Origin: an uncultured Lentisphaerota bacterium
GTDB lineage: Bacteria > Verrucomicrobiota > Lentisphaeria > Oligosphaerales > CAITYL01
Reading direction: 5' to 3'
Assembly: GCA_903894975.1 (NCBI GenBank)
Contig: CAITSE010000040.1
Span: 1 to 10,468 of the forward strand
DNA length: 10,468 nucleotides
The translations under genes were made by a program, and so were the position numbers. Positions 1 through 9,988 of the stretch are shown piece by piece. Numbering within the stretch: position 1 is the stretch's first letter; every line of letters starts with the position of its first letter. The notes under the pieces were generated by a model. The model was not told the origin of the DNA. It was given only the letters and a program-made list of their open reading frames with translations, and did not search any database.

Positions 1-30
1 CTGACCCCTGACCCCCGACCCCCAAACCCT
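1..30 (-). repeat. Partial cluster of CCCYGAC/CCCCGAC heptamer-like units at the window edge (reverse complement GTCRGGG/GGGTT-type), same family as the GGGTTCR repeats elsewhere
   Basis: Direct reading: ctgacccctgacccccgacccccaaaccc; C-rich-strand version of the GGGTTCA/GGGGTCG units seen at 1041, 3146, 7782, 8403 and 9404. Confidence 0.5.
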
Positions 31-96
31 TTCCCATCAGGGCAGGATTTTGTTACCCTTTTTTTTGCGGTATAGTTTCAGAGCTATGCGTCCTGG

Positions 97-1185
97 TTGT
101 CGCATGAGGATCTGCCCGTGACCGCCACCCCTTCTGAATCTTCCGGTTCCGCCGCGGCGTTCAATCCTGGCGCGGTGTTGGGGCAATACCGTATTGTCCG
201 CCTGCTCGGCCGCGGCGGGATGGGCGAGGTGTATGAGGTGGAGCATGCCGTGCTGCACCGGCGGTATGCGTTGAAATTGCTGCCGGCGGAGTTCGCCGCC
301 GCGTCCGGCGCGCTGGAGCGGTTCCAACGCGAGGCCCGGGTGATGGCGGCCTTGGAGCATCCGAATATCCTCCAGGTCGATGACTTCGGCGAGACCGGCG
401 GCCGCTACTGGCTGCGCATGGAACTGGCCAACGGCGTCAATGCCGCCGGGAAGCCATGCGTCTCCCTGGCCGATTGGGTGGAAGCAAAAGGGGGGAAATT
501 GGATGCGGCGCGGGCGGCGGGCGTGCTTGGGCATATTCTTTCCGGCCTGGCCCACGCTCACAAACGCGGCGTGGTGCATCGCGACCTCAAGCCCGCCAAC
601 ATCCTGCTCCTGACCGCTGCCGATGGGAAGACGGAGGTCAAGATCGCCGACTTCGGCCTGGTACGGCTGGTGGGTGAGGAATGGGTGCGGGGGCGCGCCG
701 AGCAATCCATACGTTTGTCCATGAGCCTGGGCGACCAGCGGACCATGGCCCCGGACGGCGGGTCTTCCACCGGGTCGCTGATCGGCACCTATGCCTACAT
801 GAGCCCCGAACAGAAGCGCGGCGCCGAGGCCGACATGCGCAGCGACGTCTACGCCATGGGCCTCATCGCCTACCGCCTGTTCACCGGGCGCAAGCTGGGC
901 CTCAAGAAGCCGTCCGAACTAGTGCCCGGCCTGGCCCCGGCCTGGGACACCTGGATCATGACCGCGCTGGAGGAAGCCCCCGGCGATCGCTTTGCCGATG
1001 CGGGCGAGCTCCTGGCCGCCATGCCGGACGCGGGGGATGAGGGTTCAGGGTTCGGGGTTCAGGGGTCGGGGACGAACCCGCAACCCGCAACCCACAACCC
1101 GCGGTTCAGGGTTCAGGGTTCGGGGTTCAGGAAAAAGAACCCGCAACCCACAACCCACAACCCGCAACCCATTCCGGCTGGCTGA
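97..1185 (+). CDS. Hanks-type (eukaryotic-like) Ser/Thr protein kinase. The catalytic domain ends near nt 1040; the last ~45 codons are translated heptamer repeat
   Basis: Glycine-rich loop LGRGGMGEVY, lysine in YALKLL, catalytic loop HRDLKPANILL, DFG (IADFGLVRL), SPE-type activation-segment end (YMSPEQ), subdomain IX DVYAMGLIAY. The track start at 97 is TTG; an in-frame GTG at 118, preceded by GAGGA at 106-110 with a 7-nt spacer, is a more plausible start. The C-terminal residues ...GSGFGVQGSGTNPQPATHNPRFRVQGSGF... are a translation of the GGGTTCR/AACCCRC repeat. Confidence 0.85.
   Translation: MSHEDLPVTATPSESSGSAAAFNPGAVLGQYRIVRLLGRGGMGEVYEVEHAVLHRRYALKLLPAEFAAASGALERFQREARVMAALEHPNILQVDDFGETGGRYWLRMELANGVNAAGKPCVSLADWVEAKGGKLDAARAAGVLGHILSGLAHAHKRGVVHRDLKPANILLLTAADGKTEVKIADFGLVRLVGEEWVRGRAEQSIRLSMSLGDQRTMAPDGGSSTGSLIGTYAYMSPEQKRGAEADMRSDVYAMGLIAYRLFTGRKLGLKKPSELVPGLAPAWDTWIMTALEEAPGDRFADAGELLAAMPDAGDEGSGFGVQGSGTNPQPATHNPRFRVQGSGFRKKNPQPTTHNPQPIPAG
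1041..1170. repeat. Heptamer repeat cluster: (GGGTTCR/GGGGTCG)4 - (AACCCRC)4 - (GGGTTCR)4 - (AACCCRC)5, i.e. alternating G-rich and C-rich blocks that can pair into imperfect hairpins
   Basis: Direct reading of 1041-1070 gggttcagggttcggggttcaggggtcgggg, 1071-1100 acgaacccgcaacccgcaacccacaaccc, 1101-1130 gcggttcagggttcagggttcggggttcag, 1137-1170 gaacccgcaacccacaacccacaacccgcaaccc. G-rich blocks satisfy G3+N1-7 x4 (G-quadruplex motif). Confidence 0.8.
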
Positions 1186-1193
1186 AATGGGCG

Positions 1194-2579
1194 GTGGTGG
1201 GGCTGGGGCTGGCGGGCGTGGTTGCGGGGGCGTTTCTGGTGTGGCCGCGGCTGTTTCCGGCGGAGCAGGGGGTAGAGCGCAGGGTTCAGGGTTCAGGCGG
1301 TGGAGTGGAGAATCCTTCCGTTTCCAGTTCCCCGCCGCCGGGTGCAAACCCGCAGCCTATATCCCAGATCCCGGCGCCGGCGCCGCCGCCCCCGCAAGCC
1401 GTCATACCCCTGACCGCGCCGCCGGTGAAGCCGATCGTGCCGCCGGCGCCGTCGCCGGCCGTGACCACGCCGGCCGCGCCTGCGTCCACGATTCTTTTCC
1501 AAGACAATTTTGATGCCTACCCGGCCGGCACGTTTCCCGCTGGGTGGACCCTGCGGTACAATGGCCCCGGGACACAAAATCAGTATGTGGACAAGACGTA
1601 CTTCGTCTCATCCCCACAGGCCTTGCATCTGGTCGGTTCGGGAAGCTGGTCTGGCAACGCCTATCATCCGATAACCTTTCCGGCCAATTCCGTCTCCAGG
1701 GTGAGGGTCACGGCAAAGGTCTTGCTTGATCGCATTGTGTCAGGCGGAGCCTCCCCGGTTTTGGCCAGGGTTTGCCTGGAGAACCCGAGTTTAAGCACCT
1801 GGGGAACAGCTTTTGCCGCTGTGGAATTCCAGGCTGACGGGAATCTCTACGCGGCGCAAAGCAATGGTGGAAATTGCGTAAAACTTATGCCCTATCAGGC
1901 CAGGACCTGGTATACCATCCGGATCTATGTGGATTTCGCAACCCGGAGCTTTCGCGTGTCCGTCAATGGCGTCACCAAGGCGTCCGGCCTGAAAATAATG
2001 GATGCCGGTTTGCCAACCGGAGTGGAGTTGACCGCGGGACACGGGGACTCTCCCACGGCCTGGTTTGACGATGTGATGATTACCATCTTCCCGTCCGGGG
2101 GCGCGCCGGGACGCGTCGCCGCCAAAGAACCACAGGGATGGGAAGCGGCATGGAAGGCCGCGACCGGGTTCGATACCGAGGTCACAAAACTGAAACTCTA
2201 CAAAGGGATGGTCTGCGGCAGTCAATGGAATGTCGGCGCCTGCCTGTCACAGACGGGAGGAACGGCGTCGGTAGGCGGGTTGAGTCATCAGTTGTTTGCG
2301 CCGGGGAAGGGAACCTTCGATTTTCCCGCCGGCGGGTATGTGGGGTTTTCCTACAATGACGGAAAGAATCCGAAAAATCCGCTTACCATGACGCTCTACC
2401 ATGCCAACGGCTCGGTTCTGGCCGTCATCGGTGAAAGAGGCAAATTTGTGGCGTATGGCAACGGGAAATTCATGTTTGTCGACGAGGGTGATTGGCACGG
2501 GTACTACATCACGAAAACTCCGGTCGCCGACGGTTCCAGCGCGACCTGGAAGCACACGGGGTATGTCGCTGGCAACTAG
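1194..2579 (+). CDS. Membrane-anchored protein: N-terminal TM helix, Pro-rich linker, ~370-aa beta-rich extracytoplasmic domain of unknown family. It is possibly the C-terminal (sensor) portion of the upstream kinase separated by a frameshift in the repeat tract
   Basis: GTG start; VVGLGLAGVVAGAFLVWPRLF hydrophobic helix; PPPGANPQPISQIPAPAPPPPQAVIPLTAPPVKPIVPPAPSPAVTTPAAPAS linker; then ILFQDNFDAYPAGTFPAGW... with no recognised catalytic motifs. Frame 0 is open from nt 1041, so it overlaps the kinase frame across the whole repeat. A GGGTTCAGGGTTCAGG copy lies in-frame at 1283-1300. Confidence 0.7.
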   Translation: MVGLGLAGVVAGAFLVWPRLFPAEQGVERRVQGSGGGVENPSVSSSPPPGANPQPISQIPAPAPPPPQAVIPLTAPPVKPIVPPAPSPAVTTPAAPASTILFQDNFDAYPAGTFPAGWTLRYNGPGTQNQYVDKTYFVSSPQALHLVGSGSWSGNAYHPITFPANSVSRVRVTAKVLLDRIVSGGASPVLARVCLENPSLSTWGTAFAAVEFQADGNLYAAQSNGGNCVKLMPYQARTWYTIRIYVDFATRSFRVSVNGVTKASGLKIMDAGLPTGVELTAGHGDSPTAWFDDVMITIFPSGGAPGRVAAKEPQGWEAAWKAATGFDTEVTKLKLYKGMVCGSQWNVGACLSQTGGTASVGGLSHQLFAPGKGTFDFPAGGYVGFSYNDGKNPKNPLTMTLYHANGSVLAVIGERGKFVAYGNGKFMFVDEGDWHGYYITKTPVADGSSATWKHTGYVAGN

Positions 2580-2639
2580 TGCGGGTTCAATGAAGACGCG
2601 TGAAAATTTGGGGCCGGCACAACGAGTTCACGGAACGGC

Positions 2640-2760
2640 AAGGACGGATTGATGATAAAAATAAATAGCACGGGTCGTTTGTAAATTAAAATAAAATGAT
2701 ATAGATTGAGCGTATGAAAAACGAGTTTGGCGATAGGAGTTGTGGAGTGTGAGGCGCAGT
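2640..2760 (+). promoter_or_regulatory. AT-rich island in a GC-rich background upstream of the HTH gene; candidate sigma70-like promoter (TTGTAA 2669-2674; TATAGA 2690-2695 or TAGATT 2692-2697)
   Basis: gatgataaaaataaatagcacgggtcgtttgtaaattaaaataaaatgatatagattgagcgtatgaaaaacgag; spacer 15-17 nt between hexamers. No transcript data, so this is inferred. Confidence 0.35.
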
Positions 2761-2781
2761 CAAGCATGAGGCGAGACGACC

Positions 2782-3144
2782 ATGGTGGATGAAACCAAAA
2801 ACTATCTGACTTTGGAAGAGGTCGCGGACCGGCTGGGAGTGCATTACCAGCTCATCTACCGGTTGGTGCGTGACGGCGAGCTGCCGGCGATCCGGCTGGG
2901 CCGGGTGTACCGGGTGGAGACGACGGATCTGGAGGCCTTCCTCCAGGCGTCAAAGACGGCGCGGGTGCGTTCGCCGGGGGCGGAGCCGCCGGCGGCGTGC
3001 AGCGCCTGCGGCAAGGTCTACAAGAGCCGGCAGTCGCTGACCCAGGAATGTGAAGAGTGCAGCAGCCCGATTTGCGCGGATTGCTGGAGCCGGCGGAAGG
3101 TGCGCAAGTGCAAGGAGCATGGGGGCGGCGGTGGGGGTGGGTGA
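2782..3144 (+). CDS. Excisionase-family (Xis/MerR-like) helix-turn-helix DNA-binding protein with a C-terminal Cys-rich zinc ribbon and poly-Gly tail
   Basis: LTLEEVADRLGVHYQLIYRLVRDGELPAIRLGRVYRVETTDLEAFL matches the excisionase-type HTH pattern (TIGR01764-like). C-terminus CSACGKV...ECEECSSPICADCW has three CxxC-type pairs. The ORF ends in GGGGGGG encoded by the start of the heptamer tract. Confidence 0.85.
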   Translation: MVDETKNYLTLEEVADRLGVHYQLIYRLVRDGELPAIRLGRVYRVETTDLEAFLQASKTARVRSPGAEPPAACSACGKVYKSRQSLTQECEECSSPICADCWSRRKVRKCKEHGGGGGGG

Positions 3145-3145
3145 A

Positions 3146-3178
3146 GGGTTCAGGGTTCGGGGTTCAGGAAGGGCTGGG
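3146..3178 (+). repeat. GGGTTCAGGGTTCGGGGTTCAGG heptamer cluster (G4-capable) immediately after the HTH gene
   Basis: Direct reading: gggttcagggttcggggttcagg followed by aagggctggggttcc. Confidence 0.8.
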
Positions 3179-3185
3179 GTTCCGA

Positions 3186-3253
3186 ACAAATCCAAAATCG
3201 GCAATCCAAAATCCAAAATCAATAATCGGCGATCGGCAATCGAAAATCGGCTG
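3186..3253 (+). repeat. A-rich 'AATCCAAAATCGGCAATCC' repeat block; contains a 24-nt motif AATCGGCAATCCAAAATCCAAAAT (3196-3219) also present at 7890-7913
   Basis: aaatccaaaatcggcaatccaaaatccaaaatcaataatcggcgatcggcaatcgaaaatcggctg; internal near-repeats of AATCGGCAATC and AAAATCCAAAATC. Immediately followed by RBS TAAGGAGG (3254-3261) and ATG 3269. Confidence 0.6.
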
Positions 3254-3268
3254 TAAGGAGGTTGAATC

Positions 3269-4891
3269 ATGGGTCTTTTCTCTGACAATTGCCCGGAGTG
3301 TGGCACCAACGTGCGGCGTACGGCGAAGTTCTGCGGCAAGTGCGGGAAGCCGGGGCCGAAGAGCTGGTTCAAGTGTCCGTCCTGCCGGAAATGGGTGGGC
3401 GGGGATTCGGAGTTTTGCTGGAACTGCCATGCGGCCTTGCATCCGAACCAGCGCGGGGTGATGTCCGGCGGCATCTGGCAGCGCCCGGCCGGGATGTTCG
3501 CCCAACGTTTTGACGTGGACGATCTGCGCGGCCAGCTTGGCAAGGGCGTCATGGTTCAGGCCGGCACCTCCGCGGTGCTTTTGGACCAGGGCGTGCTCAA
3601 GGACGTGCTGGAGCCCGGCCGGCACACGCTCGACAGCCTGATGCAGCGGCTGCTGCACTGGGGTGAACCGGCCCCGCGCACCGTGATCCTGGTGGATGAC
3701 GGGGACGTGGTGCTGCCGTTGCGCATCGAGGGGTTGCGGACGCGTGAGGAGATGCCGGTCGAGTTTTACGGCGAGGTCGCCATCCATTTCCAGGCCGCGG
3801 GCGCGGATCGGCTGGTGGCGAACCTGCTGAAGGAAAAGCGGGAGGTGACCTGCCTGGAGATCACGGAGCATCTGGCCGGCGAGATCCGGTACGCCGTGCA
3901 GAACCTTTGCCAGCAGTCGCTGATGGAAGAATTGATCCGCGACCCGGAGCGGCGGCTGCGCTTGGAGAACACTCTCCAGCAGACCTTGTCCGCGGCGCTG
4001 GACCGGTTGGGGCTGGCGCTGGTGCGGGTGGCGTCGGCGGAGTTCGCGGGAACGGAATACGAGGCCATCCGCGAGAAAATGGGCGGGGTGGAACTGAAGC
4101 GGCGCGAGATTGAGTTTGACCAGCGGTTGCGGGAACTGCTGTCTTCGGACCAGATGCACCAGTTCAAGAACGAGCACGAGCTGGAGGAATACGTCAGCCA
4201 GCTCGCCCAGGAAAAGAATATCAGCGCTTCGCACCGGAACCAGGAGTTGGCGCTGTTGAAGCAGGTGCAGCGGCATGAGTTAGAGGGACACGAGGCGGAG
4301 TTCCAGATCCGGCGGGAACAAGAGCAGGCGGAGCACGAGATCGGCATCAAGGTCAAGTGGGACGATTACGGCCGCGACAAATCGCTTAAGGACGAGCGCA
4401 CCACGGACGAGATCGAGACGATCCGCCGCAAGCGCGAGGATGAAGAAGTCAAACTGGCCCTAACCTGGCGCCAGAAGAAGCAGCAGCTTGAACGCGAGCA
4501 CGAAGGGGAGCTGAAACGCTTGGAGCGCGACGACCTGGCCGAGCGCGGCCGGATCTTCTCCGGGATGAATCTGGAGACGATGCTGGCCACGATCGAGGAT
4601 CCGGCCCGGCGGGCGCACCTGCTGGAAATGCAGCAGCAACTGCAAGCGGCCGGGAAGACGCCGGCGGAGATCCTGGCGATGCAGGCGGGCCGCTCCCCGG
4701 CCGCGGCCGCGGCGTTGCAGGAAATGCTGAGGTCGAACCGGGAATTGCTCGAGTCCGAATTCAAGGAGCGGCAGCGGATCTCGGACGATGGCGCCAAGCG
4801 CCTGGAAGAAGTGATGAAAAAAGCGTTGGAAGCCGTGGCCGAGGCCGCCAAGCGCAGCGGCGGCGGCGGTCCCGTGAACATTGTGACGTGA
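3269..4891 (+). CDS. Three-part protein: N-terminal double zinc ribbon, a Band_7_1 / SPFH-like domain (YdjI-type), and a ~300-aa highly charged E/R/K/Q-rich coiled-coil C-terminal region
   Basis: Strong RBS AAGGAGG 7 nt upstream. CPECG...CGKCG and CPSC...CWNC zinc-ribbon pairs. KGVMVQAGTSAVLLDQGVLKDVLEPGRHTLDS matches the LIVRESQAAVF..G.i.DvF.PG.YTLDT signature of the SPFH-like Band_7_1 family. The region from ~REIEFDQRLRELL to EEVMKKALEAVAEAAKR is heptad-like and charge-rich. Confidence 0.85.
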   Translation: MGLFSDNCPECGTNVRRTAKFCGKCGKPGPKSWFKCPSCRKWVGGDSEFCWNCHAALHPNQRGVMSGGIWQRPAGMFAQRFDVDDLRGQLGKGVMVQAGTSAVLLDQGVLKDVLEPGRHTLDSLMQRLLHWGEPAPRTVILVDDGDVVLPLRIEGLRTREEMPVEFYGEVAIHFQAAGADRLVANLLKEKREVTCLEITEHLAGEIRYAVQNLCQQSLMEELIRDPERRLRLENTLQQTLSAALDRLGLALVRVASAEFAGTEYEAIREKMGGVELKRREIEFDQRLRELLSSDQMHQFKNEHELEEYVSQLAQEKNISASHRNQELALLKQVQRHELEGHEAEFQIRREQEQAEHEIGIKVKWDDYGRDKSLKDERTTDEIETIRRKREDEEVKLALTWRQKKQQLEREHEGELKRLERDDLAERGRIFSGMNLETMLATIEDPARRAHLLEMQQQLQAAGKTPAEILAMQAGRSPAAAAALQEMLRSNRELLESEFKERQRISDDGAKRLEEVMKKALEAVAEAAKRSGGGGPVNIVT

Positions 4892-4907
4892 GCGGGAACA
4901 TGCCGTC

Positions 4908-6212
4908 ATGAAACTGTCGTCCTGTCCAACCTGCGGCCGCGAAACCAGTTCGGGAGCTTATTATTGCCCGGGCTGCGGCGAGAAACTGCGCGGCGGCGCC
5001 GGGGCTGACGCGCCGGCGATGCCGGTCGCGGCGGCGGCGCGGGCGTTTGCGGCCGGCGGTCTGGAGCACCCGGCGCTGGGACTGCGGGGCATGGCGCTGA
5101 TGGACGGAGGCCCAGTGCTGAAGCGGCTGGACGCGTGGGTGCTGGACCGGCTCAGGCTGACGCGGTACGGCGCGAAAACGGAAGTGCCGACGGTGCTCTG
5201 CGAGACCGGCGAGGAATTCTACGGCGCGCTGTTCGCAGACGAACCGCTCTCCCAGGCGCAGATGCGGGAGCTGCTGGCGGCCCAGCTCGCCGCGGCCCAG
5301 GCGCAGGCCGAAGACGGCGGCGGCATGTTCGGCCTGTTCCTGGGGGCGCACGGTTGCCTGGTCAACGGCTGGCTGTTCCGGGAGTTGGCGGGGCTGGACT
5401 CGGTGGCGGCGTGCCTGAAGCGGCCGGAGGTGGCCGCCCGGATCTTCACCACGGCGGCCCATGAAAAATGGGGGCATGGTTTCATCAGCACCTGCACGGA
5501 GCTGGGGCGCGAGGCGGCGGCGCTGGACCTGGACCGGTTTCATTATGCCCGGCGCTTTCCCGCCCAGACCGTGACCACGCCGCGCGGCGTGCTGCTGCGG
5601 GAAAAATCCCAGGCGGTGTTCCAGGCCTCCCGGTTTGTCGAGGAAGGCTGGGCCTCCTGGGTGGATCAGCTTGCGGGGCGGAACCTGGCGGCCATTCTGC
5701 CGGAATGTCCGGAAGGCGGCGGCGGACACACTCTGCCGGAGCCGGAAACCCTGCTGGCGGCGCTGGCCGATGTCCTGCCGCCCGCCGGTATGAAGGCGAT
5801 GACGGTGTTGCTGCGACCCGGCGCGGGCACGCCGGAGCAGGCGACGGCGGCCATGGCGTGGCTGGAGGAGGCCGAAGAAAAGCTGAACGCATTTTTCACG
5901 GCGCGCTTTCATCGGCCGGCCCGGTATGTCGTCGGCCAGGCCATGTGCGCGGCGCTGGCGGCGCGGCTGGGGGAACGGGCGGTCCCGGCGGCGGTGGCGC
6001 TCGCGGGAAACGTCCGGTATGAACTTGAAAAGACCAGTGTGTCAGACCTGGTTTCGGTGGTGGCGGGCAATTCCGGGCTGAACATGAATCGGCGTCTGGC
6101 GGCGCTGCTGGCGCTGGCGGCCGCGGTGCCGCCCGGCGGGGATGCCGCCGTGGCGTTGGCGCGGGCGGCGCACGACCGGCTGAGCTGGACTGTGCCGGAG
6201 TGGGCAAGATAA
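4908..6212 (+). CDS. N-terminal zinc-ribbon protein with an Ala/Leu-rich C-terminal domain of unknown function (contains HEKWGH)
   Basis: CPTCG...CPGCG zinc ribbon in the first 25 aa; 17-nt gap from the upstream gene, so it is operonic. No confident family match beyond the zinc ribbon. HEKWGHGF is HExxxH, not a canonical HExxH zincin motif. Confidence 0.75.
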   Translation: MKLSSCPTCGRETSSGAYYCPGCGEKLRGGAGADAPAMPVAAAARAFAAGGLEHPALGLRGMALMDGGPVLKRLDAWVLDRLRLTRYGAKTEVPTVLCETGEEFYGALFADEPLSQAQMRELLAAQLAAAQAQAEDGGGMFGLFLGAHGCLVNGWLFRELAGLDSVAACLKRPEVAARIFTTAAHEKWGHGFISTCTELGREAAALDLDRFHYARRFPAQTVTTPRGVLLREKSQAVFQASRFVEEGWASWVDQLAGRNLAAILPECPEGGGGHTLPEPETLLAALADVLPPAGMKAMTVLLRPGAGTPEQATAAMAWLEEAEEKLNAFFTARFHRPARYVVGQAMCAALAARLGERAVPAAVALAGNVRYELEKTSVSDLVSVVAGNSGLNMNRRLAALLALAAAVPPGGDAAVALARAAHDRLSWTVPEWAR

Positions 6213-6240
6213 ACAGTAGTGAGAGCTGGGAACGATCCTC

Positions 6241-7773
6241 ATGGCGGATGACGCGACCATTCAATGCGGGAAGTGCGGGCGTCTGGTGCCGGCGGCAATG
6301 TTCTGCGACAACTGCGGGGCGCCGCTGGCTCCGGCTTCCCCGGACACCCCGGCGGCCCGGAGAGAGGCGGCGGCGGAGCGGGACGAGCGGAACGGCTCCG
6401 TTGCGGGAGGGGAAGAACGGGAGACGACGATGGAACCGATCGCGGCGCCCCGGCCGCGGGAGATGCGGATGCCGCCGTCGCCGGTCCGGCCCACGGACAT
6501 GCAATCGGACTGTGACGCCCTGGAGTTTTCGGTGGATGTGAGCCGGGTGTTCGTGGCAGGCGCTACTTTCCCGCTCAAGGTACGCCTGCAGTCCTCCGGG
6601 TTGGAACTGAGACGGGTCAAGGTGGAGGTGGCGACGGATCTGCCGGGCGGCGGCGCGCTACGGTCGGGCCAGACCCTGGACCGGTTACGCGCCGGTGGCG
6701 TCCGGGAACTGTCGCTGGATCTGAGCTTGCCGGAAGGGATGCAGGGGGAAAAGACCTTCCGCTGGAGCGTTTGCCTGGAGCGCGACGGCCAGCCCTGCCG
6801 GTTTGAGGCGGACCCGGTGCGGTACACGATCTATCCCGGCGATGCCAGCGCGCGGAAGGTCGTGGAGCAGGTGGTGTTCAACATCCACACCGGCCACGCC
6901 TCGGACGTGAACATCGGCGGCAAGGGCGCAGCCGAGGACTTTTTCCGCAGCCTGCGGGGCGGCGACGGCTCGGTCCGGGAACTCCTGGACCGGATGCGGA
7001 ACGCCCCGGAAGTCTGGCAGGCACTGCCTTTGCACGAATGCGAGCTTACCCTCCTGGACACGGCCCCGCCTGACGCCGCCGTGACGGGCCGGCTGACGCT
7101 GCGCGCCGGGCAGACACTGTTCCATTTGATCGCCGGGCCCGCGGTGCAGCTCGGTCGGAACCGGCAGTGCGAACTGGTGACGCGGCTGTTCTCGGCCGCG
7201 GGCGCCGCGGAGCCGGATCTGAACGCGCTCCTGAGCCGGGTGCATGCCCGGATCGAATGCGGCACGTCCGGGTGGACCGTCGAGGACGGCGGGATCAACC
7301 CGGAGGATGGCCGCTTCAAGGCGAGTTCCGGCGGGGTGTTCGTCAACGGCCAGCGCGTGGCTCCCGGAGTGAAGAGTCCTCTCCCGTTGAACCGCCCTTT
7401 TGGGCTGACCCTGGGCGCGCCGGCCGTGACGGAACCGCGGGTGATGGGCTTTGATGCGGAACTGCTGACCTGCGAGCGCTGGAACGGGGCGGACTGCCCG
7501 GTGGCGGCCCGGTGCGACCGGAAGCGGCCCGCCTGCCTGCTGCTGCGCCGGCGCGACCGGGTGCCGGAGCGGTTCGCGCTGATCGGCTGCGCTTGCGCCC
7601 CGGGGCTCAGCGTGGGGCTGCCGGAACTGGGTTCGCTGCGGGTCTGGCGGGTGCGGGATGCGTTTGCCTTCAAGTGCGGCGACCAGACCGGCTGGCTGAC
7701 GCCCGGCATCCAACTGCGGCTCTCCGGCGGCACCCAGGTCGCGGTCGAAGGCTTCCAGCAGTGGGGCTTATGA
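6241..7773 (+). CDS. N-terminal zinc ribbon + central region + FHA (forkhead-associated, phosphothreonine-binding) domain + Cys-containing C-terminal region
   Basis: CGKCG...CDNCG zinc ribbon. FHA signature at ~nt 7120-7420: LGRNRQCELV...LSRVHARIEC...WTVEDGG...SSGGVFVNGQRV...LPLNRPFGLTLG. 28-nt gap from the upstream gene. Confidence 0.85.
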   Translation: MADDATIQCGKCGRLVPAAMFCDNCGAPLAPASPDTPAARREAAAERDERNGSVAGGEERETTMEPIAAPRPREMRMPPSPVRPTDMQSDCDALEFSVDVSRVFVAGATFPLKVRLQSSGLELRRVKVEVATDLPGGGALRSGQTLDRLRAGGVRELSLDLSLPEGMQGEKTFRWSVCLERDGQPCRFEADPVRYTIYPGDASARKVVEQVVFNIHTGHASDVNIGGKGAAEDFFRSLRGGDGSVRELLDRMRNAPEVWQALPLHECELTLLDTAPPDAAVTGRLTLRAGQTLFHLIAGPAVQLGRNRQCELVTRLFSAAGAAEPDLNALLSRVHARIECGTSGWTVEDGGINPEDGRFKASSGGVFVNGQRVAPGVKSPLPLNRPFGLTLGAPAVTEPRVMGFDAELLTCERWNGADCPVAARCDRKRPACLLLRRRDRVPERFALIGCACAPGLSVGLPELGSLRVWRVRDAFAFKCGDQTGWLTPGIQLRLSGGTQVAVEGFQQWGL

Positions 7774-7781
7774 AGAGGAGA

Positions 7782-7865
7782 AGGCAGGGGTCGGGGTTCA
7801 GGGTTCAGGAAGCAAAGATGTCAGGACGCAAGGGTTCAGGGGTCGGGGTTCAGGGTTCAGGAAAG
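7782..7865 (+). repeat. Two GGGTTCR heptamer clusters (7782-7808 and 7829-7861), G-rich on + strand, G4-capable
   Basis: ggggtcggggttcagggttcagg ... agggttcaggggtcggggttcagggttcagg. Confidence 0.8.
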
Positions 7866-7870
7866 GCCAG

Positions 7871-7932
7871 GAATTAGGGAAAAATCCGGAATCGGCAATC
7901 CAAAATCCAAAATGAGAATCAGGGTTCAGGGA
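7871..7932 (+). repeat. A-rich block carrying the shared 24-nt motif AATCGGCAATCCAAAATCCAAAAT (7890-7913), followed by AGGGTTCAGGG
   Basis: gaattagggaaaaatccggaatcggcaatccaaaatccaaaatgagaatcagggttcaggg; identical 24-mer to 3196-3219. Confidence 0.6.
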
Positions 7933-7964
7933 AAAAAAACGGGAAAAGTGGGAGAACGATCGAC

Positions 7965-8456
7965 ATGGAAACGTACCGGAGGTTGGAGGACTTGGCGGTT
8001 TACGCGAAGCTTTGTCACTTGCACATTGAGATCAGCGGGATCACGCACCGATGGCCGGCTGAGGAGAAGTACGAGCTGGGATCGCAGGCCCGGCGTTCAT
8101 CGAACAGCGCCCCGGCCCAACTTGCGGAGAAGTATGATGACCGGCATATTCGGAACAAAATCGAAGGAGTCAATCGCAGTCGGGGCGAGGCCGCGGAGAC
8201 GGTACACCATCTTTACATGGCACATTTGCGGGGCTACGAGTCTCAGACGACGTATGAAGAATACCGCGCCCGCTACCAGGAATGCATCCGGATGCTTAAC
8301 GGCATGGAACGAACCCTTGAAAAACAACTGCCCGAATCGGAGCGGCGTTGGCCCCAATTGTCCGTGCGGGAAGAGGAGGGCTCGTATGACGCCTCCCCCC
8401 GCGGTTTCCCCGACCCCCGACCCCTGACCCCCGACCCCCGAACCCCTGAACCCTGA
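7965..8456 (+). CDS. Four-helix-bundle protein of the TIGR02436 family (the family first seen inside 23S rRNA intervening sequences); the last ~20 codons are translated C-rich repeat
   Basis: LGSQARRSSNSAPAQLAEKY...HIRNKIEGVNRSRGEAAETVHHLYMAHLRGY...YQECIRMLNGMERTLEK matches the family signature (L.SQ.RRSS.S...NIAEG...F..A.GS..E..~~...L.yi...eei.kML..Li). RBS GGAGA at 7951-7955. Tail ...PRGFPDPRPLTPDPRTPEP is repeat-derived. Confidence 0.8.
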   Translation: METYRRLEDLAVYAKLCHLHIEISGITHRWPAEEKYELGSQARRSSNSAPAQLAEKYDDRHIRNKIEGVNRSRGEAAETVHHLYMAHLRGYESQTTYEEYRARYQECIRMLNGMERTLEKQLPESERRWPQLSVREEEGSYDASPRGFPDPRPLTPDPRTPEP

Positions 8457-8490
8457 ACCCCGAACCCCGAACCCTGAACCCCGAACCCTA
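8403..8490 (-). repeat. Heptamer cluster in inverted orientation (CCCYGAC/CCCTGAA/CCCCGAA units; G-rich on minus strand)
   Basis: cccgcggtttccccgacccccgacccctgacccccgacccccgaacccctgaaccctgaaccccgaaccccgaaccctgaaccccgaaccctaagcc; reverse complement of the GGGTTCR arrays at 7782-7865. Confidence 0.8.
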
Positions 8491-8511
8491 AGCCGGAAAG
8501 GGAATGAACCG

Positions 8512-9366: not shown

Positions 9367-9403
9367 AAAGGACGTGGGACTTGTGACCTGAGAGGTGAAT
9401 GCA

Positions 9404-9853
9404 AAACGCCAAAGGGTTCAGGGTTCGGGGTTCAGGACGGATGGATGCGAAACACACTCAAGCTCCAATGTCCCCCGTCCCCTGCCACCCTAAACGCCAA
9501 AGGGTTCGGGGTTCAGGGTTCAGGACGGATGGATGCGAAACACACTCAAGCTCCAATGTCCTCCGTCCCCCTGCCACCCTAAACGCCAAAGGGTTCGGGG
9601 TTCGGGGTTCAGGACGGATGGATGCGAAACACATTCAAGCTCCAAGGTCCCCTGTCCCCTGCCACCGAGAGGTGAATGCAAAACGCCAAAGGGTTCGGGG
9701 TTCGGGGTTCAGGACGAATGGATGCGAAACACACTCAAGCTCCAATGTCCCCTGTCCCCTGCCACCCCAAACGCCAAAGGGTTCAGGGTTCGGGGTTCAG
9801 GACGAATGGATGCGAAACACACTCAAGCTCCAATGTCCCCGTCCCCCCACCCC
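9404..9853 (+). repeat. Five tandem copies of an ~88-bp unit (88, 89, 100 with a 13-nt insert, 88, ~85 bp), each containing AAACGCCAAAGGGTTCRGGGTTCRGGGTTCAGGACGRATGGATGCGAAACACACTCAAGCTCCAATGTCCCCYGTCCCCTGCCACCC
   Basis: Unit boundaries at aaacgcc: 9404, 9492, 9581, 9681, 9769. The third unit carries the gagaggtgaatgc insert that also precedes the first unit (9391-9403). Not CRISPR: there are no unique spacers; the whole unit is repeated. Confidence 0.85.
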
Positions 9854-9890
9854 CTGAACCCTGAACCCTGAACCCTGAACCCTGAACCCT
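9854..9890 (-). repeat. (CCCTGAA)5 perfect heptamer run, the reverse complement of TTCAGGG, capping the 88-bp tandem array
   Basis: ccctgaaccctgaaccctgaaccctgaaccctgaaccct. Confidence 0.85.
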
Positions 9891-9988
9891 ACCCTCGCAC
9901 CCCTTCTGCACCCGCCTCTTGAAACTGGAACTGGAACTCAGAGATTGGCAACGGAACTGTCGGAAACATCAGGCAAGGAGATCATGGC

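Follow-up and report, generated by a model that had tools for sequence, protein, structure and literature searches.

What are the tandem G-rich heptamers that separate the genes of a bacterial contig, and what keeps them there? The question is raised by contig CAITSE010000040.1 (assembly GCA_903894975.1) of an uncultured Lentisphaerota bacterium, the whole of which, 10,468 bp with 64% G+C and every called gene on the + strand, is referred to here as the window. The units GGGTTCA, GGGTTCG, GGGGTCG and GGGGTCA stand in tandem at each of the positions listed in an original prediction, which took them for a genome-specific family akin to repetitive extragenic palindromes (REP), bacterial interspersed mosaic elements (BIME) or miniature transposable elements with inverted repeats (MITEs). 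We suggest a different answer, namely that stem-loop elements resembling the 23S rRNA intervening sequence have the GGGTTCR clusters as their arms, and that the one complete element of the window encloses a gene for a four-helix-bundle protein of family PF05635. We put the probability of this reading at about one half.

If correct, it would join two questions. The first concerns the 7-nt intergenic repeats, which follow a rule of strand and position; they were described in 1990 and 2015, and we know of no function found for them. The second concerns the role of PF05635, a very large family with solved structures (2gsc, 2rld), of which the only role known to us is that of Avd, the accessory protein of diversity-generating retroelements (DGRs). 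PF05635 genes turn up in rRNA genes, cas operons and housekeeping operons, so far without explanation. Our literature search found no paper on bacterial GGGTTCR arrays and no publication tying intergenic heptamer repeats to PF05635 genes; one paper records a PF05635 gene in cas loci and does not mention repeats.

Heptamer arrays bracket a four-helix-bundle gene

The 14-mer GGGTTCRGGGKTCR matches the window 40 times with at most one mismatch, versus 0.05 matches expected (200 dinucleotide shuffles, maximum 2), and Tandem Repeats Finder (TRF) gives a period of 7 with 2.4-11.4 copies. The arrays are intergenic or touch just the last codons of an open reading frame (ORF), save those at 1041-1171 and 1280-1297. 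G-strand arrays begin 1-47 nt 3' of stop codons (at 3145, 7783 and 9414) and C-strand arrays finish 23-100 nt 5' of start codons (array ends 30, 8488, 8490 and 9890). In these respects the original prediction of a dispersed, strongly intergenic and often inverted family is borne out, and many of the copies are inverted pairs able to fold as hairpins.

A purine-rich left arm and a pyrimidine-rich right arm enclose the four-helix-bundle gene (Table 1); the cassette's neighbours are an FHA-domain gene and a gene for a putative lipoprotein. Predicted folding of 7775-8500 pairs the G arrays of 7783-7932 with 8408-8490 round the whole ORF, in the minimum-energy structure as well as in the centroid. 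The C array encodes the last ∼ 15 codons of the gene together with its stop, the ORF ending ...PDPRPLTPDPRTPEP* with a TGA taken from the array; the kinase ORF upstream likewise runs into heptamers (...GSGFGVQGSG...), and the warning that gene callers over-extend ORFs into the arrays was justified. TGA occurs in all three frames inside a 30-nt stretch of the C array (8425, 8447, 8454), and the G arrays are open in all three sense frames. Three-frame TGA was considered as a conserved feature of the C arm and rejected, since GGGAATC, GGGAGCA and GGGAAAA arms carry no stop codon on either strand.

The family profile matches PDB entry 2gsc (XCC0516) at E = 6.6e-19. The window protein has 2205 homologues at E ≤ 1e-10, the best of them 77-89% identical and many on contigs of 0.5-1.5 kb; viral contigs scanned with the family alignment yielded no relatives. 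A DGR reading of the gene was rejected, as the scanned window ORFs contain no RVT domain.

The bracket recurs and the two arms match

A 63%-identical homologue (locus L103) has a bracket of the same kind, between flanking genes unrelated to those of the window. A scan of metagenome contigs gave 80 further loci with 68-91% identical copies, which the window and L103 bring to 82; the metagenome loci lack phylogenetic independence. In 46 of these 82, GGGTTCR-type arrays stand on both sides: the G array stops 10-40 nt short of the ATG, a spacing seen in most of the 80 loci, and the C array sets in at the end of the ORF or immediately past it. The array density more than 500 nt away from the cassette is 0.15 per kb. 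At a typical locus the G array begins right behind the stop codon of the upstream host gene, and its last unit runs into GGAG; the ORF ends ...GFPEP*, the first C unit supplies the TGA and the next host gene starts a few nt after the C array.

When the 150-nt flanks are compared, the highest-scoring inverted match reaches a median of 18, versus 8 for host genes of the same loci. Scored in this way, which is independent of unit type, 51 of 67 related metagenome loci reach ≥ 16 versus 0 of 79 control genes (p = 2e-21). In more distant homologues the 5' arm is built of GGTTTCA/GGTGTCA, GTGTTCA or AGAGGTC, and at each locus the 3' arm is the complement. The unit overlap between the two arms of a locus is 0.599 versus 0.379 ± 0.024 after shuffling, and none of 2,000 shuffles exceeded 0.467.

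Cultivated and plasmid-borne relatives use other units again. In Xanthomonas campestris and Dyella the four-helix-bundle gene lies between accB and accC with GGGAATC-type units (L206 1424-1872, L209 1484-1930), CGGGAATCGGGAGTGGAGAATCGGGAATCGG upstream and TACCCATTCCCCATTCTCGACTCCCTATTCCC downstream, the latter directly touching the accC ATG. Xanthomonas and Dyella agree at 28/30 positions of the C array before accC, versus 72% identity for the adjoining four-helix-bundle coding sequence. The array upstream of XCC0516 is repeat no. 15 in the supplement of Rehm et al. (2015), annotated as overlapping the XCC0516 start. We also observe that the gene splits the otherwise tightly linked accB-accC pair, that the C array meets the accC ATG without a Shine-Dalgarno sequence and that this array is better conserved than the coding DNA around it.

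A plasmid sample contributed 19 copies (17 cyanobacterial, one each from Azospirillum and Gemmatirosa), of which 13 have matched inverted arrays and one has a single arm beside an ISL3 insertion. Among the units seen are GGGAGCA, GGGAAAA, GGGTGTA, GGCAGAA, GGACAGA, GGTGACA, TCAGGAG, AGTAGGG and a few of 8 nt; arrays of GGGTGTA type flank the plasmid copies of Calothrix brevissima and Nostoc. In Nostoc punctiforme each of three paralogues has its own matched arm unit and the unit also differs between the two paralogues of N. edaphicum, and 80%-identical proteins of Stanieria and Nostoc PCC 7120 have GGCAGAA/GGCAGAG-type arms in common. The unit goes with the cassette lineage, not with the host.

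The arrays are real and of the heptameric-repeat class; they pair with fixed polarity, and they form the arms of a PF05635 cassette in many lineages, in which the two arms co-vary. What is new is the anatomy, matched arrays bracketing a PF05635 gene.

Some loci depart from the simple layout. At L130 (3658-4460) two cassettes stand in tandem. L191 and L192 have a gene cut short at residue 115 and joined straight to the C array, where L168 has a full-length copy at that site, which suggests decay by deletion. In L127, L129, L132, L138 and L140 the inverted repeat runs ∼ 15 nt past the arrays (ACTACTCAGGTAGAGA ... CCTGAGTAGT) while the sequence upstream differs; an element appears to have its defined end there. 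Four copies (L219, L220, L225, L226) lie within cyanobacterial cas operons (cas10|cmr3, cas6|cas4, after cas2), and tandem arrays flank all of these except L226.

The same heptamers in other genomes

An exact scan for (GGGTTCR)3, with one genome per species, returned at least 119 stretches, which is not an estimate of frequency. They are labelled Acidobacteriota, Planctomycetota, Lentisphaerota/Kiritimatiellia, Verrucomicrobiota, Gammaproteobacteria, Actinomycetota, Chloroflexota, Gemmatimonadota and others, although taxon labels of metagenome-assembled genomes may be wrong; the matches listed also include cultured isolates of Streptomyces, Micromonospora and Wenzhouxiangella. A family present in the genomes of so many labelled phyla is not genome-specific, and this part of the original prediction fails.

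Gene edges in these stretches come from a simple gene caller of our own and are crude; distances to start codons are biased, those to stop codons are not. All counts in this paragraph refer to the matches listed. Of 166 arrays in the 119 loci and the window, 134 lie between genes or at a gene edge. The nearest gene on the 5' side of the G strand is at a median of 53 nt, that on the 3' side at 150 nt, and arrays within 25 nt of a gene are found in 50/117 cases on the 5' side versus 5/111 on the 3' side. This closeness reproduces the position rule published by Rehm et al. (2015). Of 116 G arrays, 36 have a complementary C arm within 400 nt on the 3' side and one has it on the 5' side; about one third of the arrays are therefore hairpin pairs of fixed polarity, the purine-rich arm first. 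Arrays of 3, 4, 5 and 6 units number 68, 49, 17 and 8, in a sample chosen for at least three exact units. Pfam assigned the 66 array neighbours analysed to unrelated housekeeping families, with no common or mobile-element family enriched.

GGGTTCA is also the telomere unit of Plasmodium. Eukaryotic contamination of this type was rejected, the arrays being short and lying between bacterial genes in several independent assemblies.

A stem-loop model

The 23S rRNA intervening sequence of Coxiella burnetii has terminal inverted repeats, a 28-bp stem and an S23p ORF; an AG-rich Shine-Dalgarno-like motif and two or three tandem heptamers (GACAGAT, strain-variable) directly precede the ORF, and RNase III was found experimentally to cleave at the first repeat (PMC4990558). 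The window element resembles this sequence and its counterpart in Leptospira (PMC4990558) in having a PF05635 ORF in the loop of a long inverted-repeat stem, tandem heptamers upstream of the start codon and the purine-rich arm on the 5' side. It differs in its site, which is between protein-coding genes and not in helix 25 or 45 of 23S rRNA, in its arms, which are almost all heptamer array (up to 11 units), and in the many ORF-less copies dispersed near it. RNase III excision, demonstrated for the intervening sequence, can for the window element only be inferred.

A complete element consists, from 5' to 3', of a purine-rich array, a short leader with a Shine-Dalgarno-like GGAG, the PF05635 gene and a complementary pyrimidine-rich array that usually provides the stop codon. 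The window contains one such element (7783-8488) together with ORF-less derivatives, which we suggest are the hairpins 1041-1171 and 9779-9890 and the single arms 1-30 and 3145-3168; any G-arm partner of 1-30 would fall outside the contig start. The elements would colonise intergenic spacers and be transcribed along with the surrounding genes. The two arms would then pair in the transcript to give a duplex of 20-40 bp or more, and RNase III might cut this duplex, as in the rRNA intervening sequence, thereby excising the insert or processing the operon transcript there. Hairpins without an ORF may act likewise as processing or stabilising stems.

Several observations weigh against this model. 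Around two thirds of the cross-phylum arrays have no detectable partner within 400 nt. A four-helix-bundle gene was detected (tblastn and family hidden Markov model) in just 2 of the 119 array-bearing 8-kb stretches; arrays therefore far outnumber the gene, and most of them, if they work at all, work without a nearby ORF. Among the plasmid copies, three have arrays in direct orientation and two lack arrays, hence pairing cannot be the sole requirement. A plain stem leaves the 7-nt (sometimes 8-nt) tandem units unexplained. Finally, the cassette is co-oriented with its neighbours in 74-77% of cases, which we judge to be about usual for adjacent bacterial genes. We had considered co-orientation as a sign of dependence on read-through and rejected it, as these figures are not distinctive. 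The direct arrays themselves were seen in Pseudanabaena (AAAAGCT ∼ 17 times upstream, CAAAAGC ∼ 10 times downstream; L220 259-388 and 750-850), Oscillatoria (L221) and Gemmatirosa (8-nt units; L216).

We speculate, more tentatively, that the bacterial heptamer families (GGGAATC of Xanthomonas, those of cyanobacteria, and GGGTTCR) might be the cis-elements of one widespread system with a PF05635 pentamer as its trans part. Each cassette lineage would have its own matched arms, recognized by the protein, and cassettes and derivatives would have colonised sites that tolerate hairpins (rRNA helices, operon spacers and cas operons) as processing points controlled by RNase III or the protein; the rRNA intervening sequence and the Avd of DGRs would be offshoots. 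If the repeats are cassette arms, both of the questions raised above become open to experiment, for which accB-XCC0516-accC is suitable: Xanthomonas is cultivable and the protein has a crystal structure.

Alternative explanations

The main rival, which is compatible with the stem model, holds that the arrays are binding sites for the pentameric four-helix-bundle protein, on RNA or on single- or double-stranded DNA, serving self-regulation and possibly acting in trans on array-adjacent genes. It would account for a unit that is specific to the cassette lineage and not to the host (the N. punctiforme and N. edaphicum paralogues; the single arm type of the 80%-identical Stanieria and Nostoc PCC 7120 proteins), for a period kept at 7-8 nt while the sequence is free, and for direct-array cassettes that still bracket the gene. 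Avd offers a precedent: this homologous four-helix-bundle pentamer contacts an RNA stem-loop via all five protomers, with the same residues of different protomers, and the 3' end of its gene takes part in RNA pairing (bioRxiv 10.1101/2023.10.23.563531). The window differs in having no reverse transcriptase and no template/variable repeat pair, and the DGR text consulted does not feature heptamer arrays. However, the match of unit and protein lineage could be mere co-inheritance, the arrays are mostly of two to four units and not five, and 117 of the 119 array loci among the matches listed have no four-helix-bundle gene within 8 kb. We found no published sequence-specific binding for family members outside DGRs, and as an account of the arrays we consider this rival rather unlikely.

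Alternatively, the element could move at the DNA level. The inverted arrays would then be terminal repeats or homology 'landing pads', the cassette would move by host recombination or by an unidentified transposase, and the ORF-less hairpins would be MITE-like deletion derivatives, which their invariant G-to-C polarity fits. The four-helix-bundle gene is 77-89% identical over very many contexts, whereas homologues of the neighbouring SPFH gene reach 55% at most, and the cassette flanks of the window and L103 are unrelated. The tandem cassettes of L130, the truncated genes of L191/L192 and the inverted repeat extending beyond the arrays at five loci point the same way. Against mobility, neither cassette nor window contains a transposase, an integrase or a REP-associated tyrosine transposase (RAYT), no mobile-element family is enriched among the 66 array neighbours and no target-site duplication is visible by eye. 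The insertion between accB and accC is common to Xanthomonas and Dyella and so argues for long vertical inheritance. On balance we doubt that mobility explains the arrays.

The original prediction placed the family with REP/BIME or MITE repeats, and there are likenesses: short dispersed intergenic inverted repeats, hairpins in the transcript and assembly breaks. Tandem heptamer arms of variable copy number and a specific cargo gene in the loop set the present family apart. Membership of the REP/BIME class finds no support, as the arrays start with A or AA and GGGTTC, have no GTAG/CGTC head, and are accompanied by no RAYT/Y1 transposase among the window proteins. As for MITEs, the likeness is partial: the family does have inverted termini, which extend beyond the arrays in five loci, but we saw no transposase-bearing parent element, no transposase in the window and, by eye, no target-site duplication.

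A third possibility, raised by the original prediction and emphasised by Rehm et al. (2015), is that the arrays are G-quadruplex (G4) regulatory repeats whose G-rich strand, folded as DNA or RNA, modulates how the adjacent gene is transcribed or translated. The window contains 12 canonical motifs versus 3.1 in composition-matched shuffles, the blocks score 1.0-2.0 in G4Hunter, and four-unit arrays are somewhat commoner than geometric decay predicts (68, 49, 17, 8). GGGTTCA turns up in papers on Plasmodium and telomeric G-quadruplexes, and GGGAATC and GGGGAYT oligonucleotides form G4 in vitro according to Rehm et al. (PMC4692102). Yet it is not the case that every G-rich block has four or more runs of G3-4, as had been claimed: three-unit blocks (3146, 7787, 9414 and the other 88-bp units) have three, and about half of the window blocks have no fourth G3 run. 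Array blocks contain the G3+N1-7 motif only at 1032-1057 and 7832-7855 on the + strand and at 12-35, 1077-1100, 1147-1170, 8408-8488 (three times), 9859-9882 and 9887-9913 on the - strand. Where a complementary arm exists, a duplex of 20-40 bp will outcompete G4. Several homologous cassettes use units without a G3 run (GGTGTCA, GTGTTCA, TCAGGAG, AAAAGCT, GGTGACA), so G4 is not the conserved property and does not unify the family as proposed. Units that contain GGG may form G-quadruplexes; that such folding is what the arrays are for seems improbable.

Still less probable is that the arrays are simple-sequence repeats made by slippage, without function of their own or in some cases (such as the kinase-gene array) contingency switches for phase variation: array length and unit mix do vary among orthologous sites (L145, L148, L150, L153), heptamers are reported as the over-represented class of long simple-sequence repeats in bacteria (PMC4692102), and a gain of 7 nt in 1041-1171 would put the kinase domain in frame with its membrane and extracellular part, but slippage leaves unexplained both the matched complementary arrays round one gene family, with a unit that differs per paralogue, and the 28/30 conservation of the array before accC, and no copy number differs between the window and the contigs over the same arrays (L213, L214).

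The suggestion that the arrays act as intrinsic terminators is not supported either. The window has four terminator-like sites, all of them away from the arrays, and T-tracts are absent from the arrays; a consensus terminator and promoter scan gave nothing at the arrays, and terminator-like sites are fewer than in shuffles.

Relation to known heptamer repeats

The cyanobacterial short tandemly repeated repetitive (STRR) sequences have the units CCCCAGT, TTGGTCA and CAACAGT, which differ from those found here. Like the present arrays, the STRR repeats (Calothrix PCC 7601; cited in PMC4692102) comprise several tandem heptamers per genome and lie in non-coding DNA. The paper of Rehm et al. (PMC4692102) itself describes dispersed, intergenic G-rich heptamers (GGGAATC in Xanthomonas, GGGGAYT in Nostoc) that form G4 in vitro and lie ≤ 50 bp after a stop codon when in sense orientation, or before an ORF when antisense. 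The window arrays share with this class the head-to-tail 7-nt units with a G-tract, the dispersed intergenic location, the position of the G strand relative to the gene on its 5' side, the presence of some inverted pairs and neighbours without a common function. They differ in the unit, GGGTTCR/GGGGTCR, and in that they bracket PF05635 genes; no protein-family link is reported in the accessible part of PMC4692102.

The array within the kinase gene

The block at 1041-1171 forms two imperfect hairpins in the linker of a Ser/Thr kinase gene. Its minimum-energy fold (-66.5 kcal/mol, z = -4.65) contains the 5-bp GGGTT/AACCC stems with 2 x 2 internal loops that had been foreseen for 1041-1170. Three frames are open across the block, at which the kinase frame and the transmembrane/CBM-like frame are offset; the kinase-domain ORF stops at 1183-1185, and the membrane-helix/CBM-like frame is open from 1041. 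With one unit more (+7 nt), kinase domain and membrane/extracellular part would be read as a single frame. The block has the makings of a contingency locus in that the unit is not divisible by 3 and lies in an ORF. The independent assembly L213 has the identical split-kinase state, with no indel and no difference in length from the window that would indicate phase variation; the assemblies may, however, share one population.

Assembly behaviour and other features of the window

The locus is covered by four further contigs, assembled in independent ENA analyses, at 99.9% identity and without an indel. All four begin or end in arrays (window positions 8..8419, 2.., ..8462 and ..8460), and contigs from three analyses end inside 8408-8488. 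Among the independent assemblies L213 spans 609-8462, with the kinase array included, and L214 spans 5886-8460. Such breaks are what multi-copy repeats cause in short-read assemblies; the contig ends are indirect evidence that the arrays recur elsewhere in the source genome. In practical terms, arrays of this kind break short-read assemblies, mislead the calling of ORF ends and can split genes, as in the kinase here.

Table 1. Heptamer arrays, other repeats and genes of the 10,468-bp window.
Feature	Position	Strand	Remarks
C-strand array	1-30	-	∼ 90 nt upstream of kinase start; three independent contigs start inside
Ser/Thr kinase gene	97-1185	+	
Two tandem 63-bp units (2 copies by TRF)	1041-1171	+	each (GGGTTCR/GGGGTCG)x4 then (AACCCRC)x4
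G-strand arrays within 1041-1171	1041-1071 and 1103-1131	+	
Apparent kinase continuation: membrane helix and CBM-like domain	1194-2579	+	
Short G-strand array, 2.6 units	1280-1297	+	in ORF 1194-2579, right after predicted membrane helix
HTH_17 protein gene	2782-3144	+	
G-strand array, 3.4 units	3145-3168	+	1 nt past TGA of HTH_17 gene; without clear C-arm partner
Second heptamer family, NNNRATC (AATCCAA, AATCGGC)	3188-3251	+	between G array and SPFH gene start (3269)
Zinc-ribbon/SPFH protein gene	3269-4891	+	
Zinc-ribbon protein gene	4908-6212	+	
FHA protein gene	6241-7773	+	stop at 7771-7773
Left (5', purine-rich) cassette arm	7783-7932	+	starts ∼ 10 nt past FHA gene stop
Components of left arm	G arrays 7783-7809, 7831-7861; NNNRATC 7883-7913; two G units 7919-7932	+	
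NNNRATC units	7883-7913	+	within left cassette arm
Four-helix-bundle gene, PF05635 (23S rRNA intervening-sequence protein/S23p/Avd-like)	7965-8456	+	Pfam E = 1.1e-21
Right (3', pyrimidine-rich) cassette arm, 11.4 units YGA(A/C)CCC	8408-8488	-	ends 23-41 nt before next gene start (8512 or 8530)
Putative lipoprotein gene	start 8512 or 8530, to 9366	+	
88-bp tandem repeat, 4.9 copies	9404-9846	+	copy = three-unit G array then C-rich GTCCCCY units; TRF score 678
C-strand array CCCTGAA x5.6	9852-9890	-	24-bp perfect stem with last G array (9779-9801)
Further secreted protein gene	from 9989 on	+	

The NNNRATC heptamers (3188-3251 and 7883-7913) give seven matches versus 0 expected. Each time they are placed between a G array and the next start codon, and their AATC core resembles the Xanthomonas unit GGGAATC; AT-rich heptamer-like sequence is also seen upstream of the G array in L125, L126 and L132.

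The 88-bp repeat multiplies one G array along with its spacer. A CRISPR array was considered for 9404-9846 and rejected, because the whole 88-bp unit repeats at 88% identity and without unique spacers. Higher-order repeats of a similar kind occur in L123, L164 and L174, and the ORF caller gives a spurious ORF of 152 aa across the window copy (9399-9857). The hairpin at 9779-9890 has a predicted fold of -54.2 kcal/mol (z = -6.3). Neither the 88-bp repeat nor any other part of the window matched an Rfam family at E ≤ 1, and the same search of the whole window found no rRNA.

The closest homologues of the window SPFH protein are just 55% identical, and the few that are named carry the labels Kiritimatiellia, Lentisphaerae or Planctomycetota, so that the source probably belongs to the PVC group. 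The cluster of HTH_17, zinc-ribbon/SPFH, zinc-ribbon and FHA genes (2782-7773) adjoins the kinase gene. In a distant relative (L001, 9624-17196) the HTH_17 and SPFH pair occurs again with kinase genes upstream, followed by further genes that include one for a Snf7-like protein. The same locus carries, at 20355-21662, a genuine DGR (bAvd and RVT_1) that adjoins kinase/FGE-sulfatase genes and is free of GGGTTCR-type arrays.

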